Under the pieces are notes generated by a model. The model was given only the letters and a program-made list of their open reading frames with translations. It was not told where the DNA came from and ran no database searches. Source: an uncultured Gammaproteobacteria bacterium (lineage in GTDB: Bacteria; Pseudomonadota; Gammaproteobacteria; JAKDMP01). Taken from it: a stretch of 33,145 nucleotides of DNA. The first letter of the stretch is position 1. Every line of letters begins with the position of its first letter. Location of the stretch: positions 1 through 33,145 of the forward strand of contig CAZKOE010000004.1 of NCBI GenBank assembly GCA_964554305.1, written 5' to 3'. Of this stretch, positions 9,697 to 26,358 are shown piece after piece. The position numbers and the translations under genes were made by a program.

Positions 9697-9805
9697 GCTT
9701 GGCCGGGGTCGGGCTTGTAATCACCTCCGCTGCCCGCATCCGGGCTGGGGATTCTGGCCGGGGCCTCGACACCGCCTTCCTCCTGATGCGGCGCCGATTT
9801 CAAGC
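9697..9805 (-). ncRNA. Structured 5'-leader RNA motif, copy A (candidate riboswitch/cis-regulator)
   Basis: GCTTGAAA-TCGGCGCCGC/GCGGTGTCGA-GGCCCCGGCCAGAA-TCC..GCCCG/CGGGC..GGA-GGTGATTACAAGCCCGACCCCGGCCAAGC; closing stem extends to 9691/9813. Confidence 0.75.
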
Positions 9806-9814
9806 TTTCGCGGC

Positions 9815-9842
9815 ATTATAAACCAGCTCCCTGAAAACGCAA
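9815..9842 (-). promoter_or_regulatory. Sigma70-like promoter upstream of motif A
   Basis: TTGCGT-16 nt-TATAAT. Confidence 0.7.
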
Positions 9843-9897
9843 GCATCCGCATGACTCCAGGACATAAGGACACAACAGGGAAGGTTGATTAAGCAAC

Positions 9898-9944
9898 GCA
9901 AAAGCCGACGGCAAGGCCCACCCGGGGCGTCGGGTTTCACCGCG
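9898..9944 (-). terminator. Possible intrinsic terminator after 9992..12577
   Basis: CCGACG...CGTCGG stem followed by CTTTTG; imperfect. Confidence 0.4.
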
Positions 9945-9991
9945 TTCAGGCCAGCAACCGGCAATGCGAAACAGAAACAGTTCCCCCGGGA

Positions 9992-12577
9992 TCAGGGGGC
10001 GATCGGAAGGCCTGAAAGCGGCGTTTTCACCGGCGCGGCGATGCCGATGAACTTGACCAGCTTGGGCGGCGCCGAGGAAACCATCCACAGATTGCCGGAG
10101 GCGTCTATCGCGACGCCCTCGGGCAGATTGATGCCAGGATTGCGGTAGCCGTTCGCCGGGCTGAGAGCACTTCCGTCCGCCGTCGCGAGTTCGGTCAGGC
10201 TGTTGCCGTGGTAGTTGCTGATAAAGATATGCCCGGCGCTGTCCACGGCCGCGATGCTGGCCGCATACAATCCCCCGCCCATGAACCCGTCCACCGGCGA
10301 AAGCGGGCAACCGGTATCGCCCGGTCCGGGATGCCTGGGACAGGTCGCGGGGGGCGTGTTGCCGCCCACGAGTTCGGTAACGGCGCTGCCGTTGGCGGGA
10401 TAATGCGGGCCGAAGAAATTCGGTACCCACACATTGCCGTCCGCATCCAGCGCAAGACTATCGGGCTCGTTCAACCCTCCACCAGTGTAACCCGCCGCGG
10501 GTGAAAGCCACGTGGCGGCGCCGGGCGCAAACTCGCTCACGCTGAGACCGGCCTGGTTGGCGATCCACACGTCACCGAGCGCATCCACCGCTATCGATAT
10601 CGGCAACGAAATGCCCCCGCCGCGATACTGAGCGATTTCGGTACCGGAGGCGTCGAGATGAGTGAGCGAACTGTTGCCGAAATCGGCCACCCAGACAGTG
10701 CCGTCTTTCGCGATCGCGACTCCATACGGCCCCGGACTGGTGCCACTGATGGTATAGCCTTGCGCTGCGACGGGCGTGCCATCGGGCGCGAGTTCGGTGA
10801 CGATGGTGCCATTGCCGCCGTTCCAGTTGCCGATCCAAACGTTGCCGTTGCCGTCAATGGCGAGACCGGCGGAGCCACTCAAGCCGCCGCCGGTAAAGCC
10901 CGTGGGCGGCGACAGAGCCGTGCCGTCGGGCGCGAACTTGCTCACCTTGCCGTGCGGCGTAGCGGGCGGATCAGAGGGAATGTAATTGGTCACCCAGACA
11001 TTGCCCTCGGCGTCCACGGCAACGTTGCGCGCCGATCGCATGCCCCCGCCCGTGTAGACAAGGGCGAGGCTCCAGTCGTTCGGCGCCCGCGTCAACGCGG
11101 GCGAATACGCGGTCGCGGGCGCCGGAACCAGTTCGTAAACGCCGGCGCCGGCGCTGCGCAGCGCCGGTTGAGTGGCGATATGGAACAACGCGGCAAAAGT
11201 GTCGGTGACCGAACCGGCCCCGGCGAGCAAACCACTACAAGCCGTCGAGCCGGGGCCGGCGCTGGCCGTGCAGGCAGCGACAAAGTTTGCCAGTGTATTC
11301 AGTTTACGCAGCGCGTCGCAGTTGTCCGGCTCGTCATCGCCGCCGATGCAGAGTACCGTACTGGCGCCGGACACGGCGACCTTGCCGCTCGCGGCATTCA
11401 CCAGGGTAGCGAACGTAACAACGGCGTTGATGAGTCCCGGCCCCGACGCGGGGCCTGAGATATTGACAGTTCCGCCTGAAAGATCGGTGTAGCCCTCAAG
11501 ACTGTAGGCCGTGGCGACGCTCGTCAGCGGGTTGATCGTCACCGTGGAAGAAAAACCGCAGTCGCTGCCGCGGCAGAAACGGCCGGCAATGGTCGCAAGC
11601 CGGATCGCGTCATTGACGCCCGCACCCGCATCGCCGCCGCTCGCCACGGCATACACGACCTGGCCCGTGCCGGGCACCGAGTCAAATCCGACCTTGAATT
11701 TGCCGCTCGCATCCGTTTGTCCGACTCCGAGCAGAGTCGCCGGCGCATGCGGCGTGGGACTGGCCGCCCAGACCTTGACCGTCGCGCCATCCACGGGCCG
11801 ACCTCCACTCACGACCGCGCCCGCCAGCGAATGCGTCGCGGGCGGCGGGAGGGCGACAAAATGTACCGTCGCCGTACTGGGCGATTTCGTGCCGTTGACC
11901 GCGAAGCTCAACGTGATGTCTTCGGCGGCCTCGGATTTGAGGGTGCCCGTCACCCGGCCATTGTCGTTGGTGTAGTGGAGCGTGCAGATCGTGCAGGGAT
12001 CGGCGTTGATGTTCACCTTTGCCGAGCCCGTGAACGGTTGACCCTTGGTGTCCCTGAGAGTCACGGTAACGGCAGCAGCCGCCTTGCCGTCGGCCGTGAC
12101 GCTCGCCGGCACCGCCGTGATGGTGGATTTCGCCGCGCTCACCTGCGGGACGGCGACAAAGTGCACCGTCGCCGTGTTGGGCGATGCCGTGCCGTTGACC
12201 GTGAAGCTCAGCGTGATGTCTCCGGCAACCGCGGATTTGAGGGTGCCCGTCACCTGCCCATTGTCATTGGTATAGTGAAGCGTGCAACTCGCGCAGGGAT
12301 CGGCGCTGATATCCACGCTCGCCGAGCCCGTGAACGGTTGCCCCTTGGTGTCTTTGAGGGTTACGGTAATGGCCGCCGCGGCCCTGCCATCGGCCGTGAC
12401 GCTCGCCGGCACCGCCGTGATGGTGGACTTGGCCGCGCTCACCTGCGGCTTGGGCGGCGGGGGCTTGGGATTACTGCCACCGCCTCCGCCGCAACCGCCC
12501 AGCAAGACGACAAGTATGACCGTACCTGCCAGGGCAGAGAGCGAACGCCCTGTGCGCATGGAAAATCTGTTCTTCAT
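9992..12577 (-). CDS. Lipoprotein: two invasin/Big_1-like Ig domains + shared N-domain + NHL-like propeller
   Basis: Lipobox LGGC, Pro-rich linker, two 100-aa repeats (ADG..AAA.TVTL.D..GQP), GAVVSGGRP, TINPLTSVA, ends KFIGIAAPVKTP. Confidence 0.85.
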   Translation of the reverse strand: MKNRFSMRTGRSLSALAGTVILVVLLGGCGGGGGSNPKPPPPKPQVSAAKSTITAVPASVTADGRAAAAITVTLKDTKGQPFTGSASVDISADPCASCTLHYTNDNGQVTGTLKSAVAGDITLSFTVNGTASPNTATVHFVAVPQVSAAKSTITAVPASVTADGKAAAAVTVTLRDTKGQPFTGSAKVNINADPCTICTLHYTNDNGRVTGTLKSEAAEDITLSFAVNGTKSPSTATVHFVALPPPATHSLAGAVVSGGRPVDGATVKVWAASPTPHAPATLLGVGQTDASGKFKVGFDSVPGTGQVVYAVASGGDAGAGVNDAIRLATIAGRFCRGSDCGFSSTVTINPLTSVATAYSLEGYTDLSGGTVNISGPASGPGLINAVVTFATLVNAASGKVAVSGASTVLCIGGDDEPDNCDALRKLNTLANFVAACTASAGPGSTACSGLLAGAGSVTDTFAALFHIATQPALRSAGAGVYELVPAPATAYSPALTRAPNDWSLALVYTGGGMRSARNVAVDAEGNVWVTNYIPSDPPATPHGKVSKFAPDGTALSPPTGFTGGGLSGSAGLAIDGNGNVWIGNWNGGNGTIVTELAPDGTPVAAQGYTISGTSPGPYGVAIAKDGTVWVADFGNSSLTHLDASGTEIAQYRGGGISLPISIAVDALGDVWIANQAGLSVSEFAPGAATWLSPAAGYTGGGLNEPDSLALDADGNVWVPNFFGPHYPANGSAVTELVGGNTPPATCPRHPGPGDTGCPLSPVDGFMGGGLYAASIAAVDSAGHIFISNYHGNSLTELATADGSALSPANGYRNPGINLPEGVAIDASGNLWMVSSAPPKLVKFIGIAAPVKTPLSGLPIAP
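11849..12448 (-). repeat. 300-bp tandem duplication (two Ig-like domains)
   Basis: Sequence recurs with a 300-bp period (e.g. gggtgcccgtcacc at 11941 and 12241). Confidence 0.9.
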
Positions 12578-12607
12578 GTTGCCGGATACCTCGAATTTGT
12601 GGTTGGG

Positions 12608-15600
12608 TTAGGGTCCGATCACGATGGCCTCGGGTCCGGAGCCGGCCGGAAACGGCGAACTCGCCATGATCGGCGCGAGCGCTCCGTTCGCACCAATGCG
12701 AAAGGCCGACACATCATTGGCCGAGTGATTGGCAGTATAAACGTAACGCCCGCTCGGGTCCACCGTAATCGCCAGCGGCTCGTTGCCGGCGGGAAACGGT
12801 GAACCCGGCACGCCCTGCAAACTCCCATCAGCGAGAATCCGCCAGGCAGACACATCATCGCCTGTATGGTTCGCCACATATGCATAACGGCCGAATGGAG
12901 CCACGGCAACCGCGCGCGGGCGTCTACCCGTACCTACCGCAATCGGTGAACCGGGCACCGGTGTCAGTTTCCCGCCCGCCCCGATCCTGTAACCCGAAAG
13001 ATTGTCGGTGAAGAAATTGACGGCATAAGCGTATGGAGCAACCGGATCAATTGCGATCCAGTCCGTACTCGAGCTGGCCGGAAAAGGCGAACCGGTAACC
13101 TCTGCATTCGGCAAATCCGTACCCGGATCGAGCGCATAGGCCGACACATTGGCGCTCTTGTTGTTGGTGACATACAAATACCGGCCGTTGGGTGTGATCG
13201 CGACGGAAAGCGCACCGCTGCCGCTCACCGGCGCCGTTTCGACGAAATCCAGACTGCCGTCGGCGTTGCGCGAAAAGACGGAAATGGCACTCGCGGCGTA
13301 ATCAGCCGTATAGACGTGGCTTCCATTCGGACTCACCGTGATCCCGTATGGACACGCGCCGGCCGCAAGCGGATAGTCGCCAACAGTAAGCAGTGCACCG
13401 TCGCGATCGTTCACGGCATAGGCCGTCACGCCGTCTTCGCCTCCGGCACCGCAGTTCGCTACATACACGGATCGGCCGTCCGGACTCACTGCTAAAAGTT
13501 CCGGCGACACGCCGGCAGCGAACGGCGAGCCGGCAACAGGAATCAGCGCCCCGCTCACCGGGTCCAGCCGCCAGGCTGACACCGACCCGGTGGTTCCGGC
13601 ACAGGGTCGTTGCGGATCGTGACAGTTGGAATTCACGGCCCAGACATAGCGGCCGGTCGGATCCACGACAACGGCATCCGTATGAAGACCCGATGGATAA
13701 GGCGCGGCGAAATCGAGTGGCACAAGTGCCCCGGCGGCAGTGCCCGACGACGTGGCCTCTTGCACGATGGTCCAGGTCGATACATCGTTGCCGGCCCTGT
13801 TGACGGCATACAAACGAGAGCCGGCGGCGTCCACGGCGACGGGAGAGTCGCCGACGGCAAAGGGGCTGCCGGCGATCGGAACAAGCCTGCCCCCTGAATC
13901 CACCGCAAAAGCGGAAATAACGGTGCTGTTCTCGTTGGCCACGTAAACGTAGTGCCCATTCCCGGAAACGGCAACGGCGGCAGGCCCGTTCCCGGCAGCA
14001 AAGGGGCTCCCCGCAACTTCCTCCAATACGCCTTGCGCACCGATGGCATAGGCTGATACATCGCGACTTCCGGCATTGGCGGCATAGAGGTACTGCCCAT
14101 CGGGGGAGATGGCAAGGGAAACGGGTTCGACACCGGCGGTGAAGGGGCTTCCGGCCAGCGCGTCGAGCGCCCCGTCCGGGCCGACTGCATAGGCCGAAAT
14201 ATCGCCGCTCCCCGCATCGACTACATACAGGTTGCGACCGTCAAGGCTCATCGCCAACGCTCTCGGCGCCGAGCCCGTGGCGACCGCCGTGAGCCGGCTC
14301 AACTCGCCGGTGGTGGGATTGATACCGTAAACGCCAACCGTGGCGTCGTCATGATTGGCGACGTACAGATGACTGCCTGGTGCATCCACGGCAAGCGCGC
14401 GCGGACCCGCGTCATCTACAAGCGATGAATCTTCACGGACGAGCGCGCCGGTGGCCGGATCAACCGCCCAGGTAGCGATCGTGCCATCGCTCCGGTTCAC
14501 GACCCAGAGGAACCGGCCCGCGAGCCCGAGCGCCAGGGCAGAAGGCGAATCGCCCGCGGCAAAGCAGTTCGCAGGATCCGGCGAAAGAGGTACAGCAGAG
14601 GTGGAACAGGCCGTAGCCCCACCGCTCCGCAACGGTACGAGCACACCGGTCAAGGGGCTCAGGCGCCAGGCGGACAGCTTGCCGCTCACCATGTCACTTG
14701 CCCACGCAAAACGCCCGCCCGCGATCGTCCAGTTGTCCGGAGCGGAAGACAGCACCGGACGGTAAGCAGGCCTTTCCGGCAGCAGTTCCATCAATGCCCT
14801 GCCCTTCGCGTTGGCGCCCGGCCAGGCGGCGATCTCCCAGGCGGCCTGAAACGTCGTTTCCGGGCGCCCGGGAATCACCGCGAACAACGAGCGACAAGTC
14901 GCGGAAGGATCCGTTGCCGTTCCGGAACTGTTCGCGCAGGCTGCGAGCACGCTGGCAAGCGTATCGAGCTTTTGCAATGTCACGTGGATGGGATCGATCG
15001 TCGTCGCCGGTTGCGCAGCCAGGAAATCCGACGGCTTCCCGCTCGCGATATCGACAAGATTCTCCACCGTCTTCGTCGCCTGCGCAAGCCCGCGAGCCCC
15101 AACAATCGTCAAACATCGACCCGTCCGGGTGTTGCTGGCCATTGTCACGCAGTCCGCGAAACGAATATACCGGTGCAGAGCGGCCGTGCTCGCCGTTGTG
15201 GTCAATTCATTGACCGTGACGGCGGGCGGAAAGGTACAACGGGGATCGACTGCGGGCTCGCAATAGGCTCCAATCACACTCATCAACCCGAGCGCTGCAT
15301 TACTGCCTTTGCCGGCGTTTCCGCCGTGCACCGTCAGATAAACCGTCTGACCGCTCGCCGGTTTGGGCGAAAAGTTCATGGCAAAGACACCGTTCACATC
15401 ACTGTGCGCGATGCCAAGCTCGACCGGCTCTGCTCCCGCGGTTGTCCCCGCCCCATAGGCCACCACGATGGCGCCGGAGATGGCGGCGTTGCCGCTCGCG
15501 ACGGTACCTTTCAGGTCATGGGAGATCGGCGGCTTGGACGGCGGCGAGGGCAATTGCGACGAACTGCCACCTCCGCCGCAACCGCCGAGCGCAGCAAAAA

Positions 15601-15703
15601 GACTCAGGCCCGCGACGATAGCTACGCCGGGGTGCGCCAAAAACCTCGCTCGGGTGACAACACGCTTCGCTGCCGCGATAAATGCTTCTCCTTCAATATT
15701 CAA
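12608..15703 (-). CDS. Lipoprotein: shared N-domain + long lactonase (Pgl/YncE-like) propeller repeats
   Basis: LGGC lipobox, VTVNELTTTA, many GSPF.AG..P..VAV.P.GRYLYVAN repeats; TTG start uncertain. Confidence 0.82.
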   Translation of the reverse strand: MNIEGEAFIAAAKRVVTRARFLAHPGVAIVAGLSLFAALGGCGGGGSSSQLPSPPSKPPISHDLKGTVASGNAAISGAIVVAYGAGTTAGAEPVELGIAHSDVNGVFAMNFSPKPASGQTVYLTVHGGNAGKGSNAALGLMSVIGAYCEPAVDPRCTFPPAVTVNELTTTASTAALHRYIRFADCVTMASNTRTGRCLTIVGARGLAQATKTVENLVDIASGKPSDFLAAQPATTIDPIHVTLQKLDTLASVLAACANSSGTATDPSATCRSLFAVIPGRPETTFQAAWEIAAWPGANAKGRALMELLPERPAYRPVLSSAPDNWTIAGGRFAWASDMVSGKLSAWRLSPLTGVLVPLRSGGATACSTSAVPLSPDPANCFAAGDSPSALALGLAGRFLWVVNRSDGTIATWAVDPATGALVREDSSLVDDAGPRALAVDAPGSHLYVANHDDATVGVYGINPTTGELSRLTAVATGSAPRALAMSLDGRNLYVVDAGSGDISAYAVGPDGALDALAGSPFTAGVEPVSLAISPDGQYLYAANAGSRDVSAYAIGAQGVLEEVAGSPFAAGNGPAAVAVSGNGHYVYVANENSTVISAFAVDSGGRLVPIAGSPFAVGDSPVAVDAAGSRLYAVNRAGNDVSTWTIVQEATSSGTAAGALVPLDFAAPYPSGLHTDAVVVDPTGRYVWAVNSNCHDPQRPCAGTTGSVSAWRLDPVSGALIPVAGSPFAAGVSPELLAVSPDGRSVYVANCGAGGEDGVTAYAVNDRDGALLTVGDYPLAAGACPYGITVSPNGSHVYTADYAASAISVFSRNADGSLDFVETAPVSGSGALSVAITPNGRYLYVTNNKSANVSAYALDPGTDLPNAEVTGSPFPASSSTDWIAIDPVAPYAYAVNFFTDNLSGYRIGAGGKLTPVPGSPIAVGTGRRPRAVAVAPFGRYAYVANHTGDDVSAWRILADGSLQGVPGSPFPAGNEPLAITVDPSGRYVYTANHSANDVSAFRIGANGALAPIMASSPFPAGSGPEAIVIGP

Positions 15704-15726
15704 AACGCCACTGCGTGGTTTCGGCT

Positions 15727-17757
15727 TCAGGGTGCCGTTGGCAGACCACCCAGCATGGGCGTTTTCACGGGCGCCGCAAGACCGATAAACTTGAGCAGTT
15801 TGGATGGCCCCTTATTCACCGACGAATTGGTTGCCATCCAGACATTCCCCGAGGCATCTATCGCCACTCCCTCGGGCTGGTTGATTACGGGATTCCTGTA
15901 ACCACCCGTCAGACCCGTCGGGCTGAGCGCGCTGCCGTCCGCCACATTCAACTCGGTGAGGCTGTTGCCGTGGAAATTGCTCACGAATAGGTGCCCCGCA
16001 CTGTCTATGGCCACGATGTCGGGCGCGAACAGGCCACCACCAGTGAAACCGTCCGCAGGCGAAAGCGGGCAACCGGTGTCACCCGGCCCGGGGTTTGCCG
16101 GGCAACTCGCCGGCGGCGTGTCACCCCCCACCAATTCGCTCATCACGGAGCCATCCGCCGGATAGTTCGAACTGTAAAACTCCGGCACCCAAACGTTCCC
16201 GTTGGCATCCAACGCGAGGCTTTGCGGCGAATACTGCAAACCGCCACCTGTGTAGCCGTGGGCCGGTGAAATCCAGGTTGCCGCCGAAGGTGAAAATTCA
16301 GCTACGCTGTTGCTGCCGTAGTTGGCCGTCCATACATTGCCCAGTGCGTCTATGCCGATCCCGAGGGGATAGGCGATGCCGCCGCCGTGGTACTGAGCAA
16401 TTTCGGTTCCATTCGGATCGAGACTGGTGATTGAGGCATTGCCGTTATCCAAAACCCAGATGGTGCCGTCAGGGGAGATCGCGATGACATACGGCCCCGG
16501 GCTGATGCCGCTGATCTTGTGTCCGTTGGCCGACACGGGCACGCCGCTGGAGTTGAACTCGCTGACTTCGGTACCGTCGCCGCCGTTCCAGTTGGCAACC
16601 CAGACGTTACCGCTGGCGTCGATCGCAAGGTTGACAGGGCCCTGTAACCCGCCCCCCTGAAAGCCACCGCTCGTGTTGCAATTCGCTCCGCTGTTCGGAG
16701 AGATTGCTGCACCAATTGGAGAAAACTCGCTGATATGACCGTGCGGGGTCTGACCCTTGTCCCAAGGAAGGTAATTGGCCACCCAGACGTTGCCTTGAGC
16801 ATCTATGGCAATACCCTCCGAGAAGCACAGGCCCCCGCCGCCATAAACCAGCGACAAGGTCCAATCGTTCGGGGTCGCACTCAACGCCGGCGAATAGATC
16901 TGCTGTCCGGATGGCAGCAGGTTGAAAATGCCGGTACTGTCATTACGGACGGACGCCTCGGTAACAATGCTGAACAAGGCGGAAAAGGTGTCGTCCTCCG
17001 CCGGACTGGTCGCATCGAAAAGACCGCCGCAGGCCGTCGAAGCGGGTCCATTGCTGTTTACGCAAGCGGCGGTAATGTCGGCCAGCGTATTGAGCTTTTC
17101 CAGCGCATAGCAGTTATCGGGTTCGCCGCTGCCGGTGCAGTCAGTGCCCTTCAAAAACACGCTTCCGCCGCGATTGTTCACCAGGTTCGCGAAAGTAGCG
17201 ACCGCATTCGCAAGTCCCGGCCCGGCCGTGGGCCCCGAAATGCCGACGATCCCGCCCGACAGATCGGTGTAGCCTTCCAGGCTGTAGGCCATGGCGACAG
17301 TCGAAAGCTCGTTGATATTCACAAAGTCGGGAAAATTGCAACCGTTACCCGAGCAATACGGTCCCAGGACGCTGGCGAGCCGGATCGCGCTGTTCATGCC
17401 CGAACCGGCATCACCGCCGCTCGCGACGGCGTAAACGATCTGCCCCGGCGCCGGCGTGGGAGAGAAGGTCACGCCCGTAAACCCGCCGTTCTGATTCGTC
17501 GTGACCGTGGCGAGATGTGTCGGCCCTGCGCCGGAGAGGCCGGCCCCCCAGAACTTGACGGTGGCGCCCGCAACCGGTTGTCTCCCGCCCATGACGACGC
17601 CCGAGAGCGATTCCGCGACGGGCGCCTGCACTGTTGACGATGCACCCGATCCATTTCCGCAGCCGCCGAGTGCGACGAGCAAACCCAACAGGCCGAGCCC
17701 TGCCGGTACGGCGAAAGCCCGTGAAATCGAAAAAACTTTACCGTTTGAGCGTTCCAT
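15727..17757 (-). CDS. Lipoprotein: shared N-domain + NHL-like propeller (close paralog of 9992..12577)
   Basis: ATG at 17757 after AAGGGGGAG; LGGC; GVVMGGRQP; NINELSTVA; ends KFIGLAAPVKTP. Confidence 0.87.
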   Translation of the reverse strand: MERSNGKVFSISRAFAVPAGLGLLGLLVALGGCGNGSGASSTVQAPVAESLSGVVMGGRQPVAGATVKFWGAGLSGAGPTHLATVTTNQNGGFTGVTFSPTPAPGQIVYAVASGGDAGSGMNSAIRLASVLGPYCSGNGCNFPDFVNINELSTVAMAYSLEGYTDLSGGIVGISGPTAGPGLANAVATFANLVNNRGGSVFLKGTDCTGSGEPDNCYALEKLNTLADITAACVNSNGPASTACGGLFDATSPAEDDTFSALFSIVTEASVRNDSTGIFNLLPSGQQIYSPALSATPNDWTLSLVYGGGGLCFSEGIAIDAQGNVWVANYLPWDKGQTPHGHISEFSPIGAAISPNSGANCNTSGGFQGGGLQGPVNLAIDASGNVWVANWNGGDGTEVSEFNSSGVPVSANGHKISGISPGPYVIAISPDGTIWVLDNGNASITSLDPNGTEIAQYHGGGIAYPLGIGIDALGNVWTANYGSNSVAEFSPSAATWISPAHGYTGGGLQYSPQSLALDANGNVWVPEFYSSNYPADGSVMSELVGGDTPPASCPANPGPGDTGCPLSPADGFTGGGLFAPDIVAIDSAGHLFVSNFHGNSLTELNVADGSALSPTGLTGGYRNPVINQPEGVAIDASGNVWMATNSSVNKGPSKLLKFIGLAAPVKTPMLGGLPTAP

Positions 17758-17799
17758 GGTTCTCCCCCTTGCAGCCGAGCCTGCCCCGGCGACTAACCC

Positions 17800-17834
17800 A
17801 AAAAAACGGGGTGACGCGAAAATCGCCCACCCCG
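17800..17834 (-). terminator. Intrinsic terminator after the EpsI-like gene
   Basis: CGGGGTG...CACCCCG stem followed by T7. Confidence 0.75.
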
Positions 17835-17905
17835 CATGAAAAACAGCAGCCTCGAAAGGCAACTCCAATAATCTTCGGCAGATTCCATCTGCCTGTTCAT
17901 CAACG

Positions 17906-18574
17906 TCAATCCGCCTGAGCCGCGGCCAGACGACGCGCGGGTTCGAGGTTGATCAGCGGCATCACCCGTTCGAGCTCGGCATGAAGATCGGCGATCGTGG
18001 CGTCCTGCCCCTCGGGTCCGACTTTCTTCTTCAGAATTACCGCCACCGGCACGACGCCGTTTACATAGGAGGTTCGAAACAGATTTTTCACGCTCCACTG
18101 CTCGGTCAGTCGTTCCGCGAAAGGCAGGCGATGGCCGAGGCACTCCTTCGGGGTACAAGCGGTTGCCGCTACCAACTGTATTTCATTTCCGGAACGTACG
18201 GCGCCCATGTCAAATACAACGAAGCCACTGGCCGTACGAAACCTGTTCAAACGCTCGAAGATAAGATCGTCGCCCTTGGTCAGGAAGCAGCCGATGCCGT
18301 TGTGTGCGCGTGGATCGCCGCGACGAAAATCGAGCAGGATCGGGGACGGCCCGAAGGTTCCCGCCGCGTACAGTGCACCGGTCTCCACGATGCTGCCACT
18401 CAAGTTATTATGCCAGTTTTTGAGCATATGCGAGGATCCCAGACTTGCCGGCACCAGAGTGATGCCCGGAACCTTGGCATTGGCTACTTGCAAGTGAGAC
18501 AAGTTAAGGAAAACGCTCGCCAGCACACCCATGGCGATCACGGCGACGCTTGCGACGATCAGTTTGAGGTACAC
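17906..18574 (-). CDS. Exosortase-associated EpsI-like protein (may correspond to the XrtJ C-terminal domain)
   Basis: GTG at 18574 overlaps the exosortase 3' end; one N-terminal TM; AHNGIGCFLTKG resembles the EpsI H-x4-C-x4-G motif. Confidence 0.65.
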   Translation of the reverse strand: MYLKLIVASVAVIAMGVLASVFLNLSHLQVANAKVPGITLVPASLGSSHMLKNWHNNLSGSIVETGALYAAGTFGPSPILLDFRRGDPRAHNGIGCFLTKGDDLIFERLNRFRTASGFVVFDMGAVRSGNEIQLVAATACTPKECLGHRLPFAERLTEQWSVKNLFRTSYVNGVVPVAVILKKKVGPEGQDATIADLHAELERVMPLINLEPARRLAAAQAD

Positions 18575-19524
18575 GGTTTCGAGCGCAGCCAGCGCGGAAC
18601 TGAAAAAAGGAACAACGCAGCACAGAAGAACAGCACGCCCCCGATGAGATAATCCGCCATCGTGCCGTGGGCGTCGGTTATGTTGAGTTGCATCGTGCAC
18701 CAATAATAAACCACCACGCCGCACAACCGAACGAGATTGAACACATAGGCGAGGAACACGGCCGCGACGACATAGCCGATCCAACGCGACCAACGCAGAC
18801 GATAGAGATAACCGATGACCAGCGCGAGATAGCCCATCGTCAGCGCGCCGCGCATCCCGTCGCAGCCGGGGGCGATGAACATCCCCAGATGTGGCGTGAA
18901 CATCATGCGCAGCGTGCCTTCGGTGACCGCCACTCCCATGAAGGCGGCGAAGCCTCGTGCCATATGCGCCGCGAAGTACTGCAGCGGCAGGTCAACCAGA
19001 CTGTTGAAGAAGCCCGGCGCCGGGTTCACGGCAATCAGCAGCAGGAGCGGAAACCAGGCTTTGCGCCAGGCCCGTGTTCCCCCGAACAGGAGCACCACAC
19101 CGCTTGTGTAGCCGCTGATCAGAAGACCGCGCGGAATGAAAGCGACTCCCGGAACAGTTTCAAGCGCATGCAAACGCACGGCGAAGAGGTAAGGGGAAGC
19201 ATCAATCAACAAAGCCAGTGCGGCCGTCACTAGAAGCAGCGGCAGTCCCCACCAAGTACCGCCGTGCCCGAAGTCCTCGAGACGCCAGGCGCGGATCGCG
19301 AGCACAAGGCTCGCTACCGGAATTGCCATGCCGATCGAGCGCAGCGGATCGGTGGTCCACGTTCGCCACAGGCTCTCCCACTGCCAAACAAAACAAAGGA
19401 CAAAACCGAGCGCAAGCAGCAGCACAGTGGAAGCAACCGCCAGCCAGGCGCGGCGCCGATCATCCAGCCCCGTGGTGGAAACCTGAGCGGCTTTCGCGAC
19501 GATTCTCGAGCCGGGTACACTCAT
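18559..19524 (-). CDS. xrtJ: Exosortase, J-like (exosortase/archaeosortase family)
   Basis: Multi-TM protein; DLPLQ; catalytic-type Cys in FIAPGCDGMRG; Arg in FNLVRL; adjacent PExPT-CTERM genes suggest subtype J. Confidence 0.8.
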   Translation of the reverse strand: MSVPGSRIVAKAAQVSTTGLDDRRRAWLAVASTVLLLALGFVLCFVWQWESLWRTWTTDPLRSIGMAIPVASLVLAIRAWRLEDFGHGGTWWGLPLLLVTAALALLIDASPYLFAVRLHALETVPGVAFIPRGLLISGYTSGVVLLFGGTRAWRKAWFPLLLLIAVNPAPGFFNSLVDLPLQYFAAHMARGFAAFMGVAVTEGTLRMMFTPHLGMFIAPGCDGMRGALTMGYLALVIGYLYRLRWSRWIGYVVAAVFLAYVFNLVRLCGVVVYYWCTMQLNITDAHGTMADYLIGGVLFFCAALFLFSVPRWLRSKPCTSN

Positions 19525-19650
19525 GACACTGAATTTTACACCGTAATGACAAGAAGAGTGCGGAAACAGATCGGCCGTAAATCTCGCGCCAACACAACTA
19601 TCGAAACTACAACACCCAGCAAACCGGCGCACCGTCGAGCACGAACAGTT

Positions 19651-19683
19651 AAAAAAACCCGACACCCCACGCCGGGCTCGGGT
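19651..19683 (-). terminator. Intrinsic terminator after PExPT gene 19767..19976
   Basis: ACCCGA...TCGGGT stem ending in a T7 run; a second hairpin GCCCCGCCG/CGGCGGGGC lies at ~19714-19742. Confidence 0.7.
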
Positions 19684-19766
19684 ATTCAGCAGCCCTTAAC
19701 GGGGGGCTCACAAGCCCCGCCGCGCAGCTGACACGGCGGGGCCCGATTCCTTGCTGGTTCGATTTC

Positions 19767-19976
19767 TTACTTGTCGTGCTTGCTGCGGCGGCGTCGAACA
19801 ACCGAGCGGACCCACGGTACACCCGCTGCAACCGCACCGATACCGGCAAGAATCCAGGTCGGGTTCTCGGGCGAGTTCACGCAGCCACCGAAGGCGAAGG
19901 CCGTCGAGGCCAAGCAACTCAGACCGACCACGGCCGCTCCGCCGGTAAGCGTCAGCATCAAAGTACGTTTGAACAT
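19767..19976 (-). CDS. PExPT-CTERM (XrtJ-associated TM-motif-TM) small protein, copy 1
   Basis: Signal peptide + GGCVNSPENPT + TM + RRRR tail; GGAGG upstream. Confidence 0.88.
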   Translation of the reverse strand: MFKRTLMLTLTGGAAVVGLSCLASTAFAFGGCVNSPENPTWILAGIGAVAAGVPWVRSVVRRRRSKHDK

Positions 19977-20023
19977 GGTGTTTCCACCTCCTCTGTCAAG
20001 AGAAAAATTAAAAGGTCAATCGC

Positions 20024-20052
20024 AGTATAGGCCACATCGTCAAAGAATGCAA
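20024..20052 (-). promoter_or_regulatory. Sigma70-like promoter of PExPT copy 1
   Basis: TTGCAT-17 nt-TATACT. Confidence 0.7.
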
Positions 20053-20170
20053 GCCTTTTTCGGCCAACCCGTACCCCTCCCGCAACAACGGGAGAAGGAC
20101 CTCACACCGATCGCAGCCGACCGCATCTCACAATCTCGGCCCGGACAGGGCGTTCCGGCCCTTCTTCCCT

Positions 20171-20208
20171 CGGTAGCAGGAGGGGGCGTGACGCCCCTCC
20201 TGCTACCG
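20171..20208. repeat. Near-perfect inverted repeat (~17-bp arms)
   Basis: CGGTAGCAGGAGGGG(G)CG-TGA-CGCCCCTCCTGCTACCG. Confidence 0.8.
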
Positions 20209-20265
20209 GATGCCAGAGCCCTCTCACTGCCAACGGCACAGAAACCGGGCCTCAATCCGCGGCAA

Positions 20266-22260
20266 TTACGGGGTGAACCCGTCGCTGCCGGTCGCGGCCA
20301 CGAGCGGTGTGCGCGTGGGCGCGGCCAGACCAATGAATTCGGTCAGGGAGTCGTTGGACGAATTGCTCACCCACAGGTTGCCGGAGGCATCCACCGCGAT
20401 CGAGAAGAACGCCGGATTGCACAGCCCGCCACCGGTGTAGCCCGTGCTCGGCGAAAGCGCCGCAACCACGGTACCGCTGGCCGGGGCCTTGAACTGGCTG
20501 ACGCTGCCAACGGCGCAGTTGGCGACGGAGGATGCCGTCGTTCCGTAGTTCGAGACCCAGATGTTGCCGTCCGCGTCAATGGCTACGCCATACGGCGAGT
20601 CGAGTCCGCCACCGGTGTAACCGGTGTCGCTGCCAAAAGTGGCCCCGATGCCAAAGAAAACGCCCGGATAGTAGTAGTTGATCGTATTGTTGCCACTACT
20701 CGCGATCCAGAGATTTCCGTCACCCCCAAGGGCTATACCAACGGGATGATCAAGCTGCCCGTTTCCACCCACGCAAGTTGCATAGTAAAAAAAGAACCAA
20801 CCGAACTTGCAGATATAACCGTTATTGTAACTCGTGGCCCACGGAGCCCCGCCAGTAGCGGCGCCTGAGGCGATGCCCATGGCCCCACTGAGGTTGCTGC
20901 TGGTGATCGGGCCGGTAAATATGGAGGTCGAGAACGAATACCCGGTGACGGAGCTATTGCCGAAATTCGCGGTTCCCAGATAAACGCCGTTGCCGCCGAA
21001 GTTTTCGAAACCGATGCCATAAGGCTGGCTGATCCCACTGCCGACCGTCGCAATCGGCGGCACAAAGGTTCCGTTTGCCGTCTGAAACTCGCTGATTGAG
21101 CTGTTGCCGTTGTTTGCGGTCCAGACGTTACCGTTCGGACCCACGGCAATGCCGATGGGTGCGACAAGCCCTGCCGTGCTCGTCGTGAGAATCGGAGCTC
21201 CAATCGGACTGAACTCGCTGATCGAGTTGCCGGCGTTGTTTGCGACCCAGACATTGCCCGCGGCATCAACGGCAATGCCCATGGGAGCATCGAGCCCGTT
21301 ACCCGTGTAGTTAAGCGCGAGGGTCCAGGCATTGGGGGCGGCCTGCAGTCCCGGAGTGTAGATCTTGGTCAGCGGGTTAAGCGCATACAGCGTCGCCCCC
21401 GCATTGCGTACTGCCGAGGCGGTCGCCACGTTGTAGAGCGCCTGGAAGACATTGGCCGGCACGTTGCCGCCAGCCGTCGTCCCGTTGAAGAAACTCGTAC
21501 ACACGCCCGCACCGGCAGACGGGCTGTTCACACAGGCCGCCGCGATGTTGGCCAACGTATTGAGCGTCTCCAGCGCCGCACAGTTCACCGGCTCCCCGCT
21601 GCCCGTGCAGGCCTGCCCACCATCCGTTCCCGGCACATTGCCCGTGCCGTTATCGGAGTTGACCAGATTGGCAAACGTGGCGGCCGCATTGGTCAGCCCA
21701 GCCAGGGCATTCGAATCGTTACCCGCCACCGCCACGTTCACCGACGTACCGGTAATGCTCGTGAACCCACCCATGCTGTAAACCATGGCGGTCGTGGCCA
21801 ACTCGTTGATGTTGACGTTGGTCAGATTGGTGCAGCCGTAGTCCTCACAGACCCCCGCCACGGTCCCCATCAGGATCGCTGTGTTGGAACTGTCGCTGCC
21901 TGAACCGTCGCCTCCGGCCGCCGTCACATAGACAATCGCCCCGGTTCCGGGTACGGGGGCAAAACCCGCAACCGAGAAATTACCGTGTGCGTCGGTCGTG
22001 GCCGTGGCGATCACCGGAGCGGGCATTCCGCCCTGCCCGGCCATGTAGACCGTAATCCGGGAGCCCACGACCGGCTGGCGTCCTCCGAAAACCGTACCCG
22101 AGAACGCCGCACCTCGCGCCACTGGCGCCGCCGACGCACCGGAACTGCTGGAGGAGCCGGCCGGACAACCCGCCAGCAAGCCGAGACCGCCCACCAGCGC
22201 GGTGCCCGCAAAGCCCATGGCGATGCGGGACGCCAAAGAAGAAACCGAAATCTTGAACAT
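20266..22260 (-). CDS. Lipoprotein: shared N-domain + NHL-like propeller
   Basis: LAGC; GTVFGGRQP; NINELATTA; GIAVD..GNVWV repeats; ends EFIGLAAPTRTP...GFTP. Confidence 0.88.
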   Translation of the reverse strand: MFKISVSSLASRIAMGFAGTALVGGLGLLAGCPAGSSSSSGASAAPVARGAAFSGTVFGGRQPVVGSRITVYMAGQGGMPAPVIATATTDAHGNFSVAGFAPVPGTGAIVYVTAAGGDGSGSDSSNTAILMGTVAGVCEDYGCTNLTNVNINELATTAMVYSMGGFTSITGTSVNVAVAGNDSNALAGLTNAAATFANLVNSDNGTGNVPGTDGGQACTGSGEPVNCAALETLNTLANIAAACVNSPSAGAGVCTSFFNGTTAGGNVPANVFQALYNVATASAVRNAGATLYALNPLTKIYTPGLQAAPNAWTLALNYTGNGLDAPMGIAVDAAGNVWVANNAGNSISEFSPIGAPILTTSTAGLVAPIGIAVGPNGNVWTANNGNSSISEFQTANGTFVPPIATVGSGISQPYGIGFENFGGNGVYLGTANFGNSSVTGYSFSTSIFTGPITSSNLSGAMGIASGAATGGAPWATSYNNGYICKFGWFFFYYATCVGGNGQLDHPVGIALGGDGNLWIASSGNNTINYYYPGVFFGIGATFGSDTGYTGGGLDSPYGVAIDADGNIWVSNYGTTASSVANCAVGSVSQFKAPASGTVVAALSPSTGYTGGGLCNPAFFSIAVDASGNLWVSNSSNDSLTEFIGLAAPTRTPLVAATGSDGFTP

Positions 22261-22418
22261 GACTCATACCCTCTGGTCCTGTATCAACCACGCGGGCCGC
22301 TACAGCATCATGTTCAAGTCAGGGTGCACAGCACCGGCTCGAAATATGCCCGACCCGCACGAAGCAGCAGTCGACGCACGACTGCCCCTCAACTCCTCGC
22401 CCCGCGGGGCTTGGAGTT

Positions 22419-22530
22419 GCTTGACCGGGGTCGGGCTTATTACTACCTCCGCCTGCACCACTTCCGTGGGGGCGAATTCTGGCCGGGGCCTCCGCGTCGC
22501 CCGTTCATCACGGCGACGCGGATTTCAAGC
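22419..22530 (-). ncRNA. Structured 5'-leader RNA motif, copy B
   Basis: GCTTGAAA-TCCGCGTCGCC/GGCGACGCGGA-GGCCCCGGCCAGAA-TTCGCC..CCAC(GGAA)GTGG..GGCGGA-GGTAGTAATAAGCCCGACCCCGGTCAAGC. Confidence 0.78.
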
Positions 22531-22539
22531 TTGGGAAAG

Positions 22540-22568
22540 AGTGTAGGCCAGGTCTCTGGAAAAGTCAA
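22540..22568 (-). promoter_or_regulatory. Sigma70-like promoter upstream of motif B
   Basis: TTGACT-17 nt-TACACT. Confidence 0.72.
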
Positions 22569-22701
22569 GCCAAGGCTGGTTGCCGGCAAGCAACACAGAG
22601 AGAGGGGCCCCGCTCCATCAGGTGGAGCGGAGACCCAGCTTACAAGGAAAGCGCCTGGGGCACGGCATTACGTGCTCAACGGAGAGCCCTCCGAGGGAAG
22701 A

Positions 22702-22917
22702 TTACTTTTCGCGTTTGCCGCGGCGGCGTCGGACGACCGAACGAACCCACGGCACGCCCGCCGCAACGGCGCCGATACCCGCGAGAATCCAGGTCGGATT
22801 CTCCGGCGAGTCCACGCAGCCGCCTATGGAGGCAAATGCCGGAGTCACCGCGAACAGGCTCAAGCCCGCCGCGGTCACGCCCGCACCGAGCACCGCAAAC
22901 ATCAGTCGTTTCGTCAT
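22702..22917 (-). CDS. PExPT-CTERM small protein, copy 2
   Basis: Signal peptide + IGGCVDSPENPT; the TM and basic run WILAGIGAVAAGVPWVRSVVRRRR are identical to copy 1. Confidence 0.88.
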   Translation of the reverse strand: MTKRLMFAVLGAGVTAAGLSLFAVTPAFASIGGCVDSPENPTWILAGIGAVAAGVPWVRSVVRRRRGKREK

Positions 22918-22994
22918 GACCTCATACTCCTACTCCAGAGATATTCTGGGTAATTTTCCGCTACGGCTCCCGGTCCTGGCCGCGAGCCCTCGTT

Positions 22995-23023
22995 ACTTTA
23001 CCTTGCCTCTTCGCAAAAAACAA
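22995..23023 (-). promoter_or_regulatory. Possible sigma70-like promoter of PExPT copy 2
   Basis: TTGTTT-17 nt-TAAAGT, with the same GCTTG -35 context as the other island promoters. Confidence 0.5.
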
Positions 23024-23136
23024 GCAGAAGCCCCCCGCGTGACTACCGTTCACCCGAACCCGCCGCACATCCTCCCTTCTCGGTGCAAAAGCGAAGAAAA
23101 GGCGGCGGCGGACACGGGACGAACGTATAGCTCATA

Positions 23137-25056
23137 TCACGGCGTGAAACCATTCACTAGGGCGCTGGCAATCGGCGTGACCGTGGGTGCGGCGATACCG
23201 ATAAACTCGGTGACCGAGTTGGGAGAGCCCTCGTTGGCTACCCAGAGATTACCGCTCGAATCCACGGCGAGTCCCTGTGGGCTGTTCAGCCCGCCGCCAT
23301 CGTAGCTGCCGAGCAGCCCGCCGGTCTGTGTGAACAGGCTGACCGCATTGCCACTCGAATTCGATGCCCAGGCTTCGCCGGCGGCATCCACGGCGATCCC
23401 GTCCTTGGTGCCCGTACCGGTACCGCTCAGGGTCCAGTGGCCGATCGCGGTGCCGGATGAAGTAAATGCGCTCACCGAACCGTCGCCATTCGCAACCCAG
23501 AGATTGTTGGCCGAATCCACGGCGAGTGCCTGAAGGCTGCCGAGACCATTGCCCGACGCGGTCGCCGTTTGGCTGCTGCCGTTGAATTGCACGGCTTCGC
23601 TGCCATCGGCCACCCAAACGTTGTCGTCGGCATCCATGGCGATGGCACGGGGGTCACTCGAAAGCAATCCCTGCAGACTGAGGCTGGTGAGCTGTGTCCC
23701 CGCCGTGCTGAAGGAGGCGAGCGTCGGAAGAAGAAGACTCAGAAGCCCGGAACTGGGCAGCCATACATTCCCCGCCGGACCGACGGCGATGCCTTGCGGA
23801 TTACCGATCTTGAGGAGAATCCCGATTAGCCCCCCCGTGTAAGTGCCAATGTAGCCGCCATCGTTGCTAAACTTGCTGATGGAGCCGCCAAGCAATCCAA
23901 GTACGTCCGCTTTGCTGGTAACCCAGACATCGCCATTCAAGTCCACGGCGATGTCGTGGATGCCGTTAAGGTTGCTGTCGGTGAAATTGCCCAGGGCCGT
24001 GCCATCGTTGCCGAACTTGCTGATGGTATCGTCGGTCGTGTTTGTCAACCATACATTGCCACTGGCGTCGATTGCAAGTCCGGCCGGATTGTTCAGCCCG
24101 TTATCCGTGTAGTTGAGGGCGACGATCCAGGCGTTGGGCGCGGCATCGAGGCCGGGGTTGTAGATCTTCGTCAGCGGGTTGAGCGCAAACAGTGCCGTCC
24201 CCGCACCGCGCACCCCCGGGTCGGTCACCACGTTGTAGAGCGCCTGGAACACATTGCCCGGCACGCTCCCCCCGCTCGTCGTGGTCGCATTGAAAAAACC
24301 CGTGCACGCACCCACGCCCGCGCTCGGACTGTTCACGCAGGTCGCCACTATGTTGGCCAATGTATTGAGTGTCTCCAGCGCCATGCAGTTCACCGGCTCT
24401 CCGCTGCCCGTGCAGGCACTGCCATCATTCGTGCCGGGCACCCGGTCCGTACCGTTCGCGGGATTGACCAGATTGGCAAACGTATTCACCGCATTTGTCA
24501 GGCCCGCCACGGCATTAGTGTCGTTACCCTGCACCGCCACGTTCACCGACGTACCGGTAATGCTCGTGAACCCGCCCATGCTGTAAACCATGGCCGTGGT
24601 CGCCAACTCGTTGACGTTGACGTTGCTCAGATTGGTGCAGCCGTAGTCCTCACAGACCCCCGCCACGGTCCCCATCAGGATCGCTGTGTTGGAACTGCCG
24701 CTGCCTGAACCGTCACCACCGGCCGCCGTGACGTAGACGATCGCTCCCGTCCCCGGCACCGGCGAAAAGCTGGCCACGGTGAAATTGCCACGCGCGTCGG
24801 TCGTGGCCGTGGCGATCACCGGAGCCGGCGTGCCGCCCGTCCCGGCCATGTATACCGTAATCGCCGAACCCACAACCGGTTGACGACCACCGAAGACCGT
24901 GCCCGAAAGCGCCGCACCCCGCGCACCCGGCATCGCCGAAGCACTGGAACTGCTGGAGGAGTTGGCCGGACAACCCGCCAGCAAGGCGAGCCCGGCTACC
25001 AACACGGCGCCGAAAAGTACGGTGGAAACAAACGAAAATTTGTGCTCACTATTCAT
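23137..25056 (-). CDS. Lipoprotein: shared N-domain + NHL-like propeller (close paralog of 20266..22260)
   Basis: Start at ATG 25056 after GGAGG; LAGC; N-terminal half nearly identical to the 20266 gene; ends EFIGIAAPTVTP...GFTP. Confidence 0.88.
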   Translation of the reverse strand: MNSEHKFSFVSTVLFGAVLVAGLALLAGCPANSSSSSSASAMPGARGAALSGTVFGGRQPVVGSAITVYMAGTGGTPAPVIATATTDARGNFTVASFSPVPGTGAIVYVTAAGGDGSGSGSSNTAILMGTVAGVCEDYGCTNLSNVNVNELATTAMVYSMGGFTSITGTSVNVAVQGNDTNAVAGLTNAVNTFANLVNPANGTDRVPGTNDGSACTGSGEPVNCMALETLNTLANIVATCVNSPSAGVGACTGFFNATTTSGGSVPGNVFQALYNVVTDPGVRGAGTALFALNPLTKIYNPGLDAAPNAWIVALNYTDNGLNNPAGLAIDASGNVWLTNTTDDTISKFGNDGTALGNFTDSNLNGIHDIAVDLNGDVWVTSKADVLGLLGGSISKFSNDGGYIGTYTGGLIGILLKIGNPQGIAVGPAGNVWLPSSGLLSLLLPTLASFSTAGTQLTSLSLQGLLSSDPRAIAMDADDNVWVADGSEAVQFNGSSQTATASGNGLGSLQALAVDSANNLWVANGDGSVSAFTSSGTAIGHWTLSGTGTGTKDGIAVDAAGEAWASNSSGNAVSLFTQTGGLLGSYDGGGLNSPQGLAVDSSGNLWVANEGSPNSVTEFIGIAAPTVTPIASALVNGFTP

Positions 25057-25185
25057 AATGTCAACCTCCATGCCTCAATCAATTCCCGCGCGATCGAGAA
25101 CGACCGTCGACGGCCAAATACCCCCATCTCGCCTGCCTGGCAAGACGAGAGGCTACTTGATTGCAGTCTAGACGGAAATGAAAAA

Positions 25186-25230
25186 ATGAGGTAATCAAGA
25201 CGTCTCATGAGGATCATCCCGACGTCTCAT
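25186..25230 (-). promoter_or_regulatory. Tandem operator-like repeats, candidate AraC-family binding sites
   Basis: ATGAGACGTC twice with a 22-bp period (25199-25208, 25221-25230), each followed by CCTCAT; possible -10 TAGACT at 25165-25170 with a poor -35. Confidence 0.55.
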
Positions 25231-25297
25231 TCACGCGGTCCTGTCATCGGCACGAACCGGAAAACCCGGCACGGGCCCTGCCCCCGCCGATCTCGGT

Positions 25298-26167
25298 TTA
25301 TTGGATCGCGAGACTCCGCGCCTCGGAAGGCGTCATGTGATAGCGTGCGCGAAAACTGCGGCTCAGATTGGGACTGTCGTACAGTCCGCAGCTCGCCGCC
25401 AGTTCACCAATCGCCGCATCGGAGGAAGCCGTTTCCAGTAACAAACGCAGCCGGTCCAGACGTTCGTTGCGAATGTAGTTCGCAACGGTCAACCCGTGCT
25501 CGGAAAAGACCCGATACAGCGTCGCGCGCGAACAGCCGAGTGTGCGTGCGATCCAGGCGGAACCGAGATCGGGGTCGGCGAGATTGCTCTCGATGCAGTA
25601 GCAGGCTTGAATAAAAAAATCCTCACGATGAGTCCGCCCGCTCCGCGGTACAACCTCCGTCCAGGCGTCACCCATGGCGGAAAGCGCCGCTCTCACGACG
25701 CCGGTTGCGACCGCCTCGACAGCCAGCAACGAGGCGGCCCTTTCCCCCTCGTCTAGGTTGTCGAAGACGGTGTGAAGCGCTTCCAGTTCATCGCGGAGCA
25801 TCGCCGTCAGGGTGCCGGCGTGGATTGCCTTCGATGCCGCGCCGGCGGACAGCGGAGTCACCGATTCGGGTAAAAACAATCGCCGCGGCAAAATCATTTC
25901 GATAATTTTCGCGGCATCGGAGGCAATCCGGGCAGGAATCGCCCTGTCGCACAGATAGAAATCCTGCGGTCGGACACGGAAGGGTTCGCCACCCAGTTGT
26001 TGGTAGGTGATGCTTCCGCACTTGACATAATTGAGGGCAAGCTTTTTTTCATCGGCACCCGCGAAGGAAAACATCCGGAGGACGTGACCGGATTCCGGCG
26101 TAGACCCTGCCAAACAGCTTTCCGACTTGAAACCCGGCTTCTTCTGTTTTGTACCCTGTCTGTACAT
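25298..26167 (-). CDS. AraC-family transcriptional regulator
   Basis: C-terminal double HTH: IARTLGCSRATLYRVF...IRNERL...IGELAASCGLYDSPNLSRSFRARYHMTP. Confidence 0.9.
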   Translation of the reverse strand: MYRQGTKQKKPGFKSESCLAGSTPESGHVLRMFSFAGADEKKLALNYVKCGSITYQQLGGEPFRVRPQDFYLCDRAIPARIASDAAKIIEMILPRRLFLPESVTPLSAGAASKAIHAGTLTAMLRDELEALHTVFDNLDEGERAASLLAVEAVATGVVRAALSAMGDAWTEVVPRSGRTHREDFFIQACYCIESNLADPDLGSAWIARTLGCSRATLYRVFSEHGLTVANYIRNERLDRLRLLLETASSDAAIGELAASCGLYDSPNLSRSFRARYHMTPSEARSLAIQ

Positions 26168-26236
26168 GTTACCGCCACCCTGTCGGACCCGGACGGACGG
26201 TTGCCACGACCAAGCCTCCCCACGGGAACTTGGCTG

Positions 26237-26350
26237 GCTTGACCGGGGCCGGGCTTATAGCTACCTCCGCTTGCCCGCATGAAGCAGGTGCGAATTCTGA
26301 CCGGTATATCCATACTGAACCCTTCACTACAGGCAGTACGGATCTCAAGC
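26237..26350 (-). ncRNA. Structured 5'-leader RNA motif, copy C
   Basis: GCTTGAGA-TCCGTACTG/CAGTATGGA-TATACCGGTCAGAA-TTCGC..CCTGC/GCGGG..GCGGA-GGTAGCTATAAGCCCGGCCCCGGTCAAGC. Confidence 0.75.
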
Positions 26351-26358
26351 TCATTGAC

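Follow-up and report, generated by a model that had tools for sequence, protein, structure and literature searches.

A structured leader RNA with near-invariant junctions, apparently confined to one genus, precedes lipoprotein, pilus and regulator genes in an uncultured gammaproteobacterium

A structured RNA motif of 109-130 nt recurs in the predicted 5' leaders of lipoprotein, pilus and AraC-family regulator genes in an uncultured gammaproteobacterium, known from the metagenome-assembled genome (MAG) GCA_964554305.1 (2.7 Mb, 330 contigs, 90.7% complete). The window, meaning the whole stretch of 33,145 nt that was analysed, is its contig C4 (CAZKOE010000004.1), for which a sequence-only reading had proposed three copies of a leader RNA resembling a ligand-binding aptamer. 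We interpret the motif as a new cis-acting structured leader RNA, genus-restricted and of riboswitch type, sensing a small molecule or ion, and give this reading a probability of roughly 40%. That the motif is a functional structured cis-acting leader of some kind, whether a sensor, a protein-binding site or a fixed element, is very probable.

The three copies of the window stand where they had been placed, on the minus strand (Table 1), and align over the whole motif. The alignment contains the shared consensus blocks, a 5' GCTTG able to pair with a 3' CAAGC, and two internal hairpins that differ in sequence among the copies and retain their pairing. Three is the correct number for the window but not for the genome: a covariance model (R1), built from eight distinct copies and including helices P1, P2 and the base of P3, recovers 11 copies at 65-135 bits (E 1e-12 to 6e-30), with three on C4, two each on C121 and C183, and one each on C180, C280, C3 and C195 (the last cut by the contig end), besides one degenerate variant. 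The resemblance among copies is far beyond chance. A 20-nt pattern taken from the 3' block of the motif finds nine sites in the source genome and its reversed control none; BLASTN of three whole leaders against the same genome yields no further copies. Contigs from four soil sequencing runs of one study cover the window locus, with zero variants inside the motif copies; among RNA sequencing runs, none was listed as holding the locus.

The motif folds as a three-way junction. P1 pairs GCUUG with CAAGC; P2 is a hairpin of at least nine pairs, its loop usually purine-rich and GGAGG-like; P3 rises from a UUCGC/GCGGA base through an internal loop to a C-rich/G-rich distal stem with a loop of 4 to 13 nt. 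The junction strands are J2/3, CCGGYCAGAA, and J3/1, GGU-RNNNNY-AAGCCCGRCCCCGGY. Mean pairwise identity over 11 full copies is 0.96 in the J2/3 core, 0.90 in the J3/1 core and 0.93 in the P3 base, with values of 0.52 for the P2 stem and 0.56 for the RNNNNY region. Since the downstream lipoprotein paralogs are only 34-74% identical as proteins, the junctions are held by selection and not by recent copying. Within J3/1, the internal pair 141-148 (R with Y, around a four-base loop that is often GNRA-like) is G-C in eight cells, A-U in three and other or unpaired in one; this variation suggests a fourth mini-helix, so that a 2-bp mini-hairpin may lie inside J3/1. A helix of CGG-A-GGU with ACC-CCG is also compatible with the data, its outer pair being U-A in eight cells, C-G in one, U-G in one and other in two. 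By eye, a pair of similar half-units can be made out in the motif, each running GAAWUC, hairpin, GRGG and CCCCGGYCA.

Covariation places the selection at the RNA level. Among 13 rows aligned to the model, all of them paralogs from two genomes, two-sided compensatory changes occur at every one of the nine P2 pairs and at two of the five P1 pairs, both of the latter (G-C to A-U and U-A to C-G) contributed by G001, the only other genome of the genus. Paired cells amount to 91%, against 37-46% when the partners are slid by one to three columns, and none of 500 shuffles attains the covariation score of the alignment. When the 5' half of P2 from one copy is joined to the 3' half from a different copy, the chimeric hairpins fold at -11.6 kcal/mol, versus -18.7 kcal/mol for cognate ones. 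G-U pairs fit the minus strand only, as had been claimed; P3 pair 62-136, for example, is U-G in 11 of 12 cells and becomes an A-C mismatch on the other strand. The nine P2 pairs and the junction identities together support the proposed structured RNA with conserved junctions and covarying stems, and an aptamer-like structure backed by covariation is present in these 13 related rows and their model-fitted alignment.

The same evidence bears on whether conservation might act on DNA alone, the copies being a repeat or promoter cassette kept alike by duplication or gene conversion and devoid of RNA function. Such an origin would suit the position of most copies ahead of paralogous lipoprotein genes with conserved signal peptides, the 99.1% identity of the two C183 copies over 347 nt, and the soil-run contigs that join paralogs to each other. 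It does not suit stems that stay paired by two-sided changes at an identity of 0.52 between fixed junctions, G-U pairs that fit a single strand, an orientation that is always towards the gene, or copies ahead of non-homologous genes and in a second species; copy lengths also differ by non-multiples of three, and the overlapping open reading frames (ORFs) have no Pfam match. This explanation was already disfavoured and we regard it as very unlikely. A coding explanation was rejected on the same lack of Pfam matches in the overlapping ORFs. We also rejected a repeat of the repetitive extragenic palindromic or miniature inverted-repeat transposable element (REP/MITE) kind, as all copies with DNA downstream point to a gene start and follow a -10-like box, and BLASTN of whole leaders found no copies elsewhere in the genome.

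The motif lies at the predicted 5' end of transcripts, with promoter-like sites directly upstream and co-oriented genes downstream. A promoter scan of 9400-27000 calls four sigma-70-like sites, one of them ending 10 nt ahead of copy 2 and another 9 nt ahead of copy 3, in a region where shuffled sequence gives 3.9 such sites. The -10 box of copy 1 ends about 9-10 nt ahead of the motif, and by eye all other copies follow a TATAAT-like box at 8-14 nt. The earlier claim of a -10 box before each copy stands, but its constant spacing of 8-9 nt widens to 8-14 nt across copies. The -35 region of most copies is GCTTGA or GCTTGC, the same letters as the motif start GCTTGA, and the spacer often has a T-run; this likeness may reflect a shared operator or just family resemblance.

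Having its own promoter, each copy might instead be an independent trans-acting small RNA of about 110-150 nt that ends at a hairpin after the motif, and several copies do carry a variable hairpin directly after P1. These hairpins lack a U tract and were not called as terminator-like. Every copy has a co-oriented gene after it, no second promoter was seen, and among the lipoprotein copies conservation extends into the leader beyond the motif. We regard a small-RNA family as highly improbable.

Wherever a copy has DNA downstream of it, a gene in the same orientation follows, and the S53 lipoprotein, NHL lipoprotein and AraC genes named for the window in the sequence-only reading are indeed of the S53 pro-kumamolisin/NHL, NHL and AraC families. 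Eight copies face lipoprotein-family genes with a conserved signal peptide and lipobox, among them those for the S53 pro-kumamolisin/NHL and NHL propeller proteins in the window. One lies ahead of the AraC-family gene, after which comes a further NHL lipoprotein gene, and one ahead of a chaperone-usher pilus operon made up of an SCPU fimbrial subunit gene, a PapD chaperone gene and a long ORF. In the congener G001, one copy precedes a HAD/2-hydroxyacid-dehydrogenase fusion gene. The other (L011:1501-2100, +) is well conserved, with promoter and downstream leader elements, and is followed by a short lipoprotein signal-peptide remnant in which the lipobox cysteine is replaced, with a convergent acyl-CoA synthetase-like gene beyond. 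Here the leader looks to have outlived its gene, leaving a decayed lipoprotein start. Fixed junctions around covarying stems, a predicted 5'-end position and many copies on coherent, partly non-homologous genes add up to a pattern like that of a riboswitch aptamer.

Table 1. Motif copies, predicted promoters and leader segments in the window.
Feature	Positions	Strand	Description
Motif copy 1	9697..9805	-	109 nt; P1, P2, P3 and conserved junctions; heads S53/NHL lipoprotein gene 5805-9521; R1 102.6 bits
Motif copy 2	22419..22530	-	112 nt; P3 loop is GGAA; heads NHL lipoprotein gene 20266-22260; R1 115 bits
Motif copy 3	26237..26350	-	114 nt; heads AraC-family gene 25298-26167, then NHL lipoprotein gene 23137-25071; R1 109 bits
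Predicted promoter of copy 1	9815..9842	-	TTGCGT, 16-nt spacer, TATAAT; by eye, below scanner threshold
Sigma-70-like promoter of copy 2	22540..22568	-	TTGACT, 17 nt, TACACT; promoter scan
Sigma-70-like promoter of copy 3	26359..26387	-	TTGATT, 17 nt, TATATT; promoter scan
Remainder of leader 1	9522..9696	-	175 nt to ATG at 9521; contains a mid-leader complement of the start-codon region
Leader 2 downstream segment GCGGGTCGGGC	22348..22358	-	complementary to GCCCGACCC of the 3' junction strand; candidate alternative pairing
Leader 2 mid-leader segment CTTGAACATGA	22308..22318	-	exact complement (11 nt) of start-codon region 22252-22262
Leader 2 start-codon region TCATGTTCAAG	22252..22262	-	ATG at 22260-22258; partner of the mid-leader segment

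The lipoprotein leaders run 131-176 nt beyond the motif, except for 55 nt at C180, and this downstream part is also conserved. Its segments offer candidate alternative pairings. Several leaders carry GGGUCGGGC, the complement of GCCCGACCC in the junction, and the junction-strand duplex is matched by at most 4 of 200 shuffles in three of ten leaders and is weaker elsewhere, leader 2 among the weak cases (18/200 for GCGGGTCGGGC with GCCCGACCC). For the duplex between mid-leader and start codon, 0-4 of 200 shuffles do as well in four of ten leaders; it reaches -15.7 kcal/mol in leader 1 (4/200) and -16.9 kcal/mol in leader 2, where CTTGAACATGA is the mid-leader strand (0/200). In each of the eight full leaders folded, imposing P1 destabilises the ensemble by 7-14 kcal/mol relative to the unconstrained one, so a competing fold exists, and in several minimum-energy folds the 5' strand of P1 pairs near the start codon. 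No terminator-like site was called by a minus-strand scan of the three window leaders, and terminator-based attenuation was rejected for the leaders scanned; there being no intrinsic terminator, the output is probably control of translation initiation.

From these features we can sketch how a sensor might operate. Transcription would begin a few bases ahead of the motif, to judge from the promoters, and the first 109-130 nt would fold into the three-way junction, with P1 closing (GCUUG/CAAGC), P2 as the long variable hairpin and P3 as a variable hairpin on UUCGC/GCGGA. The core would consist of the two nearly invariant junction strands, CCGGYCAGAA and AAGCCCGRCCCCGGY, possibly with the 2-bp mini-hairpin or the competing CGG-A-GGU/ACC-CCG helix. 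Binding of an effector to this core would fix P1 and the 3' junction strand in position; without the effector, the 3' junction strand and the 5' strand of P1 would be captured by complementary segments further down the leader, and in the long lipoprotein leaders the capture could go along with formation of a helix that hides the start codon. Control would probably be exerted on translation initiation through alternative pairing. In this scheme the fold, its RNA-level selection, the strand, the position and the regulon are observed, and the transcription start, the switch, the effector and the direction of control are inferred.

A leader of this kind could also be a constitutive element, protecting the 5' end from decay or fixing the translation level of a highly expressed surface-protein family, and spread with a strong promoter as one cassette. 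Promoter and motif do travel together, with -35 and -10 regions alike among copies, the motif lies at the extreme predicted 5' end, and the leaders have no uniform expression platform. A stabilising hairpin, though, has no need of invariant junctions (0.96 and 0.90) around freely varying stems, and the more stable competing fold in eight of eight leaders suggests a switch, with the proviso that GC-rich leaders often give such numbers. We hold a constitutive role to be unlikely.

The element appears restricted to one genus, as far as the searches reach. By R1, the congener G001 has two true copies (97.6 and 53.1 bits), and the seven other genomes of the family, which with its nine genomes is the whole order in the dataset and includes the unpublished G006, give only matches with E>0.1. 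Searches with R1 under stricter Infernal filters of one genome per family, in 52 and then 150 other families of the class, returned no positive. A scan for exact patterns in the genome contigs of 185,579 species found nine stretches, two of them true by the model and both in G001, and the same scan of Joint Genome Institute (JGI) metagenome contigs found seven, none true by the model; these scans demand exact junction motifs, and diverged relatives would escape them. A Planctomycetota match of 23.8 bits was taken as chance and overlaps an ORF of 251 amino acids on the opposite strand (373-1128, minus). Upstream of the lipoprotein homologs in two related genera (G005 and G002; identity up to 53%), the sequence is different and contains no match to the motif. 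With genus members alone positive, the element would be an invention of this one genus.

So narrow a range is commoner among protein-RNA pairs than among metabolite sensors. The fold may be bound by an RNA-binding regulator peculiar to this lineage, for instance a translational repressor or a factor resembling an antiterminator, which would coordinate the lipoproteins, the pilus operon and the AraC gene. The structural evidence serves this reading as well as it serves a sensor; two similar half-units would suit a dimeric protein, and the P2 loops are GGAGG-rich in most copies. Against it, no candidate protein was identified, the obvious GGA-binder CsrA was not found in the 90.7%-complete MAG, and some 25 invariant unpaired nucleotides in a three-way junction exceed what most protein-binding leaders need. 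We consider a protein site somewhat unlikely. A leader controlled specifically by CsrA/RsmA was rejected, as PF02599 has zero matches in this MAG and matches the control genomes; GGA features are present all the same, in the GGA-rich P2 loops and a GGAGG in the junction. The source genome also encodes two GGDEF proteins.

The motif matches no family of Rfam 15, in agreement with the sequence-only reading: a check of the window gives no family at the gathering score. Scans at E<=10 of copy 1, and of eight loci holding eight other copies, return noise only, such as hya (14 bits) and, on the opposite strand, aceE-II (14.9 bits) on the motif, microRNA and snoRNA models, and nadA (20 bits) elsewhere in a locus. 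A full-text literature search, judged from its listings and the openings of abstracts, returned nothing on such a motif.

Among well-studied systems, the closest in architecture are the three-stem-junction riboswitch aptamers for purines and for cyclic di-GMP (class I, GEMM-I), the latter known ahead of pilus and surface-protein genes. Shared features are a short P1 that closes the structure, two hairpins of variable sequence, conserved nucleotides in the junction, a place at the mRNA 5' end (predicted here), and several copies per genome ahead of functionally related genes. The junction sequences are unrelated, though, the motif is found in one genus and those aptamers in many phyla, and no meaningful Rfam score links them; neither cyclic di-GMP class I nor class II is among the Rfam matches, at the gathering score or at E<=10. 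A loose likeness to the cyclic di-AMP (ydaO) riboswitch had been proposed along with the aptamer pattern. The conserved junctions, the covarying stems and the predicted 5'-end position are borne out. The ydaO comparison fails: RF00379 is missing from the matches at E<=10 as well, and the genes that follow the motif are unlike those of ydaO. The ydaO riboswitch is a larger, multi-helix pseudoknotted fold that usually precedes genes for osmolyte or potassium transport and cell-wall enzymes. The likeness comes down to a loosely two-fold layout, with half-units that by eye each end in CCCCGGYCA, in a motif of about 110-130 nt and three helices whose genes encode lipoproteins, AraC, pili and a HAD-dehydrogenase. 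The variable surface-lipoprotein families vsp and vlp of mycoplasmas have conserved 5' regions; there, as here, promoter, leader and signal peptide are common to lipoprotein genes whose mature parts differ. Our leaders differ from these in having a covarying RNA fold with invariant junctions, and in standing also ahead of non-lipoprotein genes; invertible or recombination sites were not seen, though no search was aimed at them.

A more specific form of the sensor reading would make the motif a new riboswitch class for a signalling nucleotide, for instance a cyclic dinucleotide, in which a two-fold core (the CCCCGGYCA half-units joined by a CCGG:CCGG contact) recognises a symmetric ligand and switches the surface regulon. 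We consider this distinctly unlikely.

Several observations count against the motif being a sensor. It is found in two genomes of a single genus, and its downstream gene set points to no nameable ligand. The transcription start is a prediction from promoter-like sequence. The candidate platform is not shared: the start-codon duplex is no better than shuffles in six of ten leaders and the junction-strand duplex in seven of ten, and forcing P1 shifts the predicted exposure of the start codon in no consistent direction. As to the fold, P3 covaries weakly, with chimeras at -13.4 kcal/mol against -14.9 kcal/mol for cognate hairpins (a difference of only 1.5 kcal/mol because all P3 arms are alike in composition), and changes in its base, P3a, are one-sided only. 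P3a and the CGG-A-GGU/ACC-CCG helix are mutually exclusive, the data favouring neither, and the proposed CCGG:CCGG contact between the two junctions never varies. Most copies stand ahead of paralogous genes, so that common descent enters into the tally of compensatory changes, and the rows had been aligned by fitting to the model; since promoter, leader of about 290 nt and signal peptide are all conserved among the lipoprotein paralogs, the copies are not independent witnesses. Lastly, the degenerate variant (C121:1522-1626, +; 24 bits by R1), with a TATACT box of its own and a paralogous lipoprotein gene downstream, keeps P1, P2 and a P3-like hairpin and has lost the invariant CCGGYCAGAA strand, with an altered 3' junction. 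Either the core is dispensable for that gene, in a variant with a different core, or this copy is decaying.

We also note some peculiarities of the copies and their surroundings: (i) The two motif-plus-leader copies on C183 (873-1219 and 4463-4809) lie 3.6 kb apart on one short contig, and are either a very recent tandem duplication or an assembly artefact. (ii) The start of the AraC gene is uncertain (26071-26167, minus strand). If translation began at an in-frame ATG near 26076, the protein would start with MFSF, resembling the MFKF of the lipoproteins, and the leader would measure about 160 nt, as the lipoprotein leaders do; this ATG lies inside a small hairpin, 26085-26071, called by the terminator scan. 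(iii) The lipoprotein family is greatly expanded in the source genome, where one query has 26 matching stretches versus two in G001; only about eight of the paralogs carry the motif, and the members in the window lie within 5805-25071. (iv) Contigs of all four soil runs join 24761 to 21038 with 29 other letters between, and single soil-run contigs join 11638 to 22162 or to 24967. Such joints come either from extra or hybrid paralogs or from recombination between members of the lipoprotein family within the population. (v) An exosortase gene (EpsH family) adjoins an ORF of 295 amino acids with no Pfam match at 17906-19665 (minus strand), upstream of an operon (9992-17868) for NHL, lactonase-propeller and invasin/Big_1 proteins that has no motif copy.

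If the motif is a sensor, it would bring surface proteins, pili and a transcription factor together in one regulon, in a soil lineage for which metagenomes are the only source, and would add a riboswitch-like class with no Rfam relative. Eleven copies in 2.7 Mb is a high density for a single leader motif and offers a handle on the signal that drives surface remodelling, and so short an RNA can be probed directly with candidate ligands. Were a signalling nucleotide the ligand, the NHL and S53 lipoproteins, the chaperone-usher pili and their AraC regulator would be switched in one step in this uncultured order of soil Gammaproteobacteria. Should the motif prove to be a protein site or a fixed stabiliser, its reach would be local, and it would still be a clean case of an RNA fold under selection across a fast-diverging gene family.

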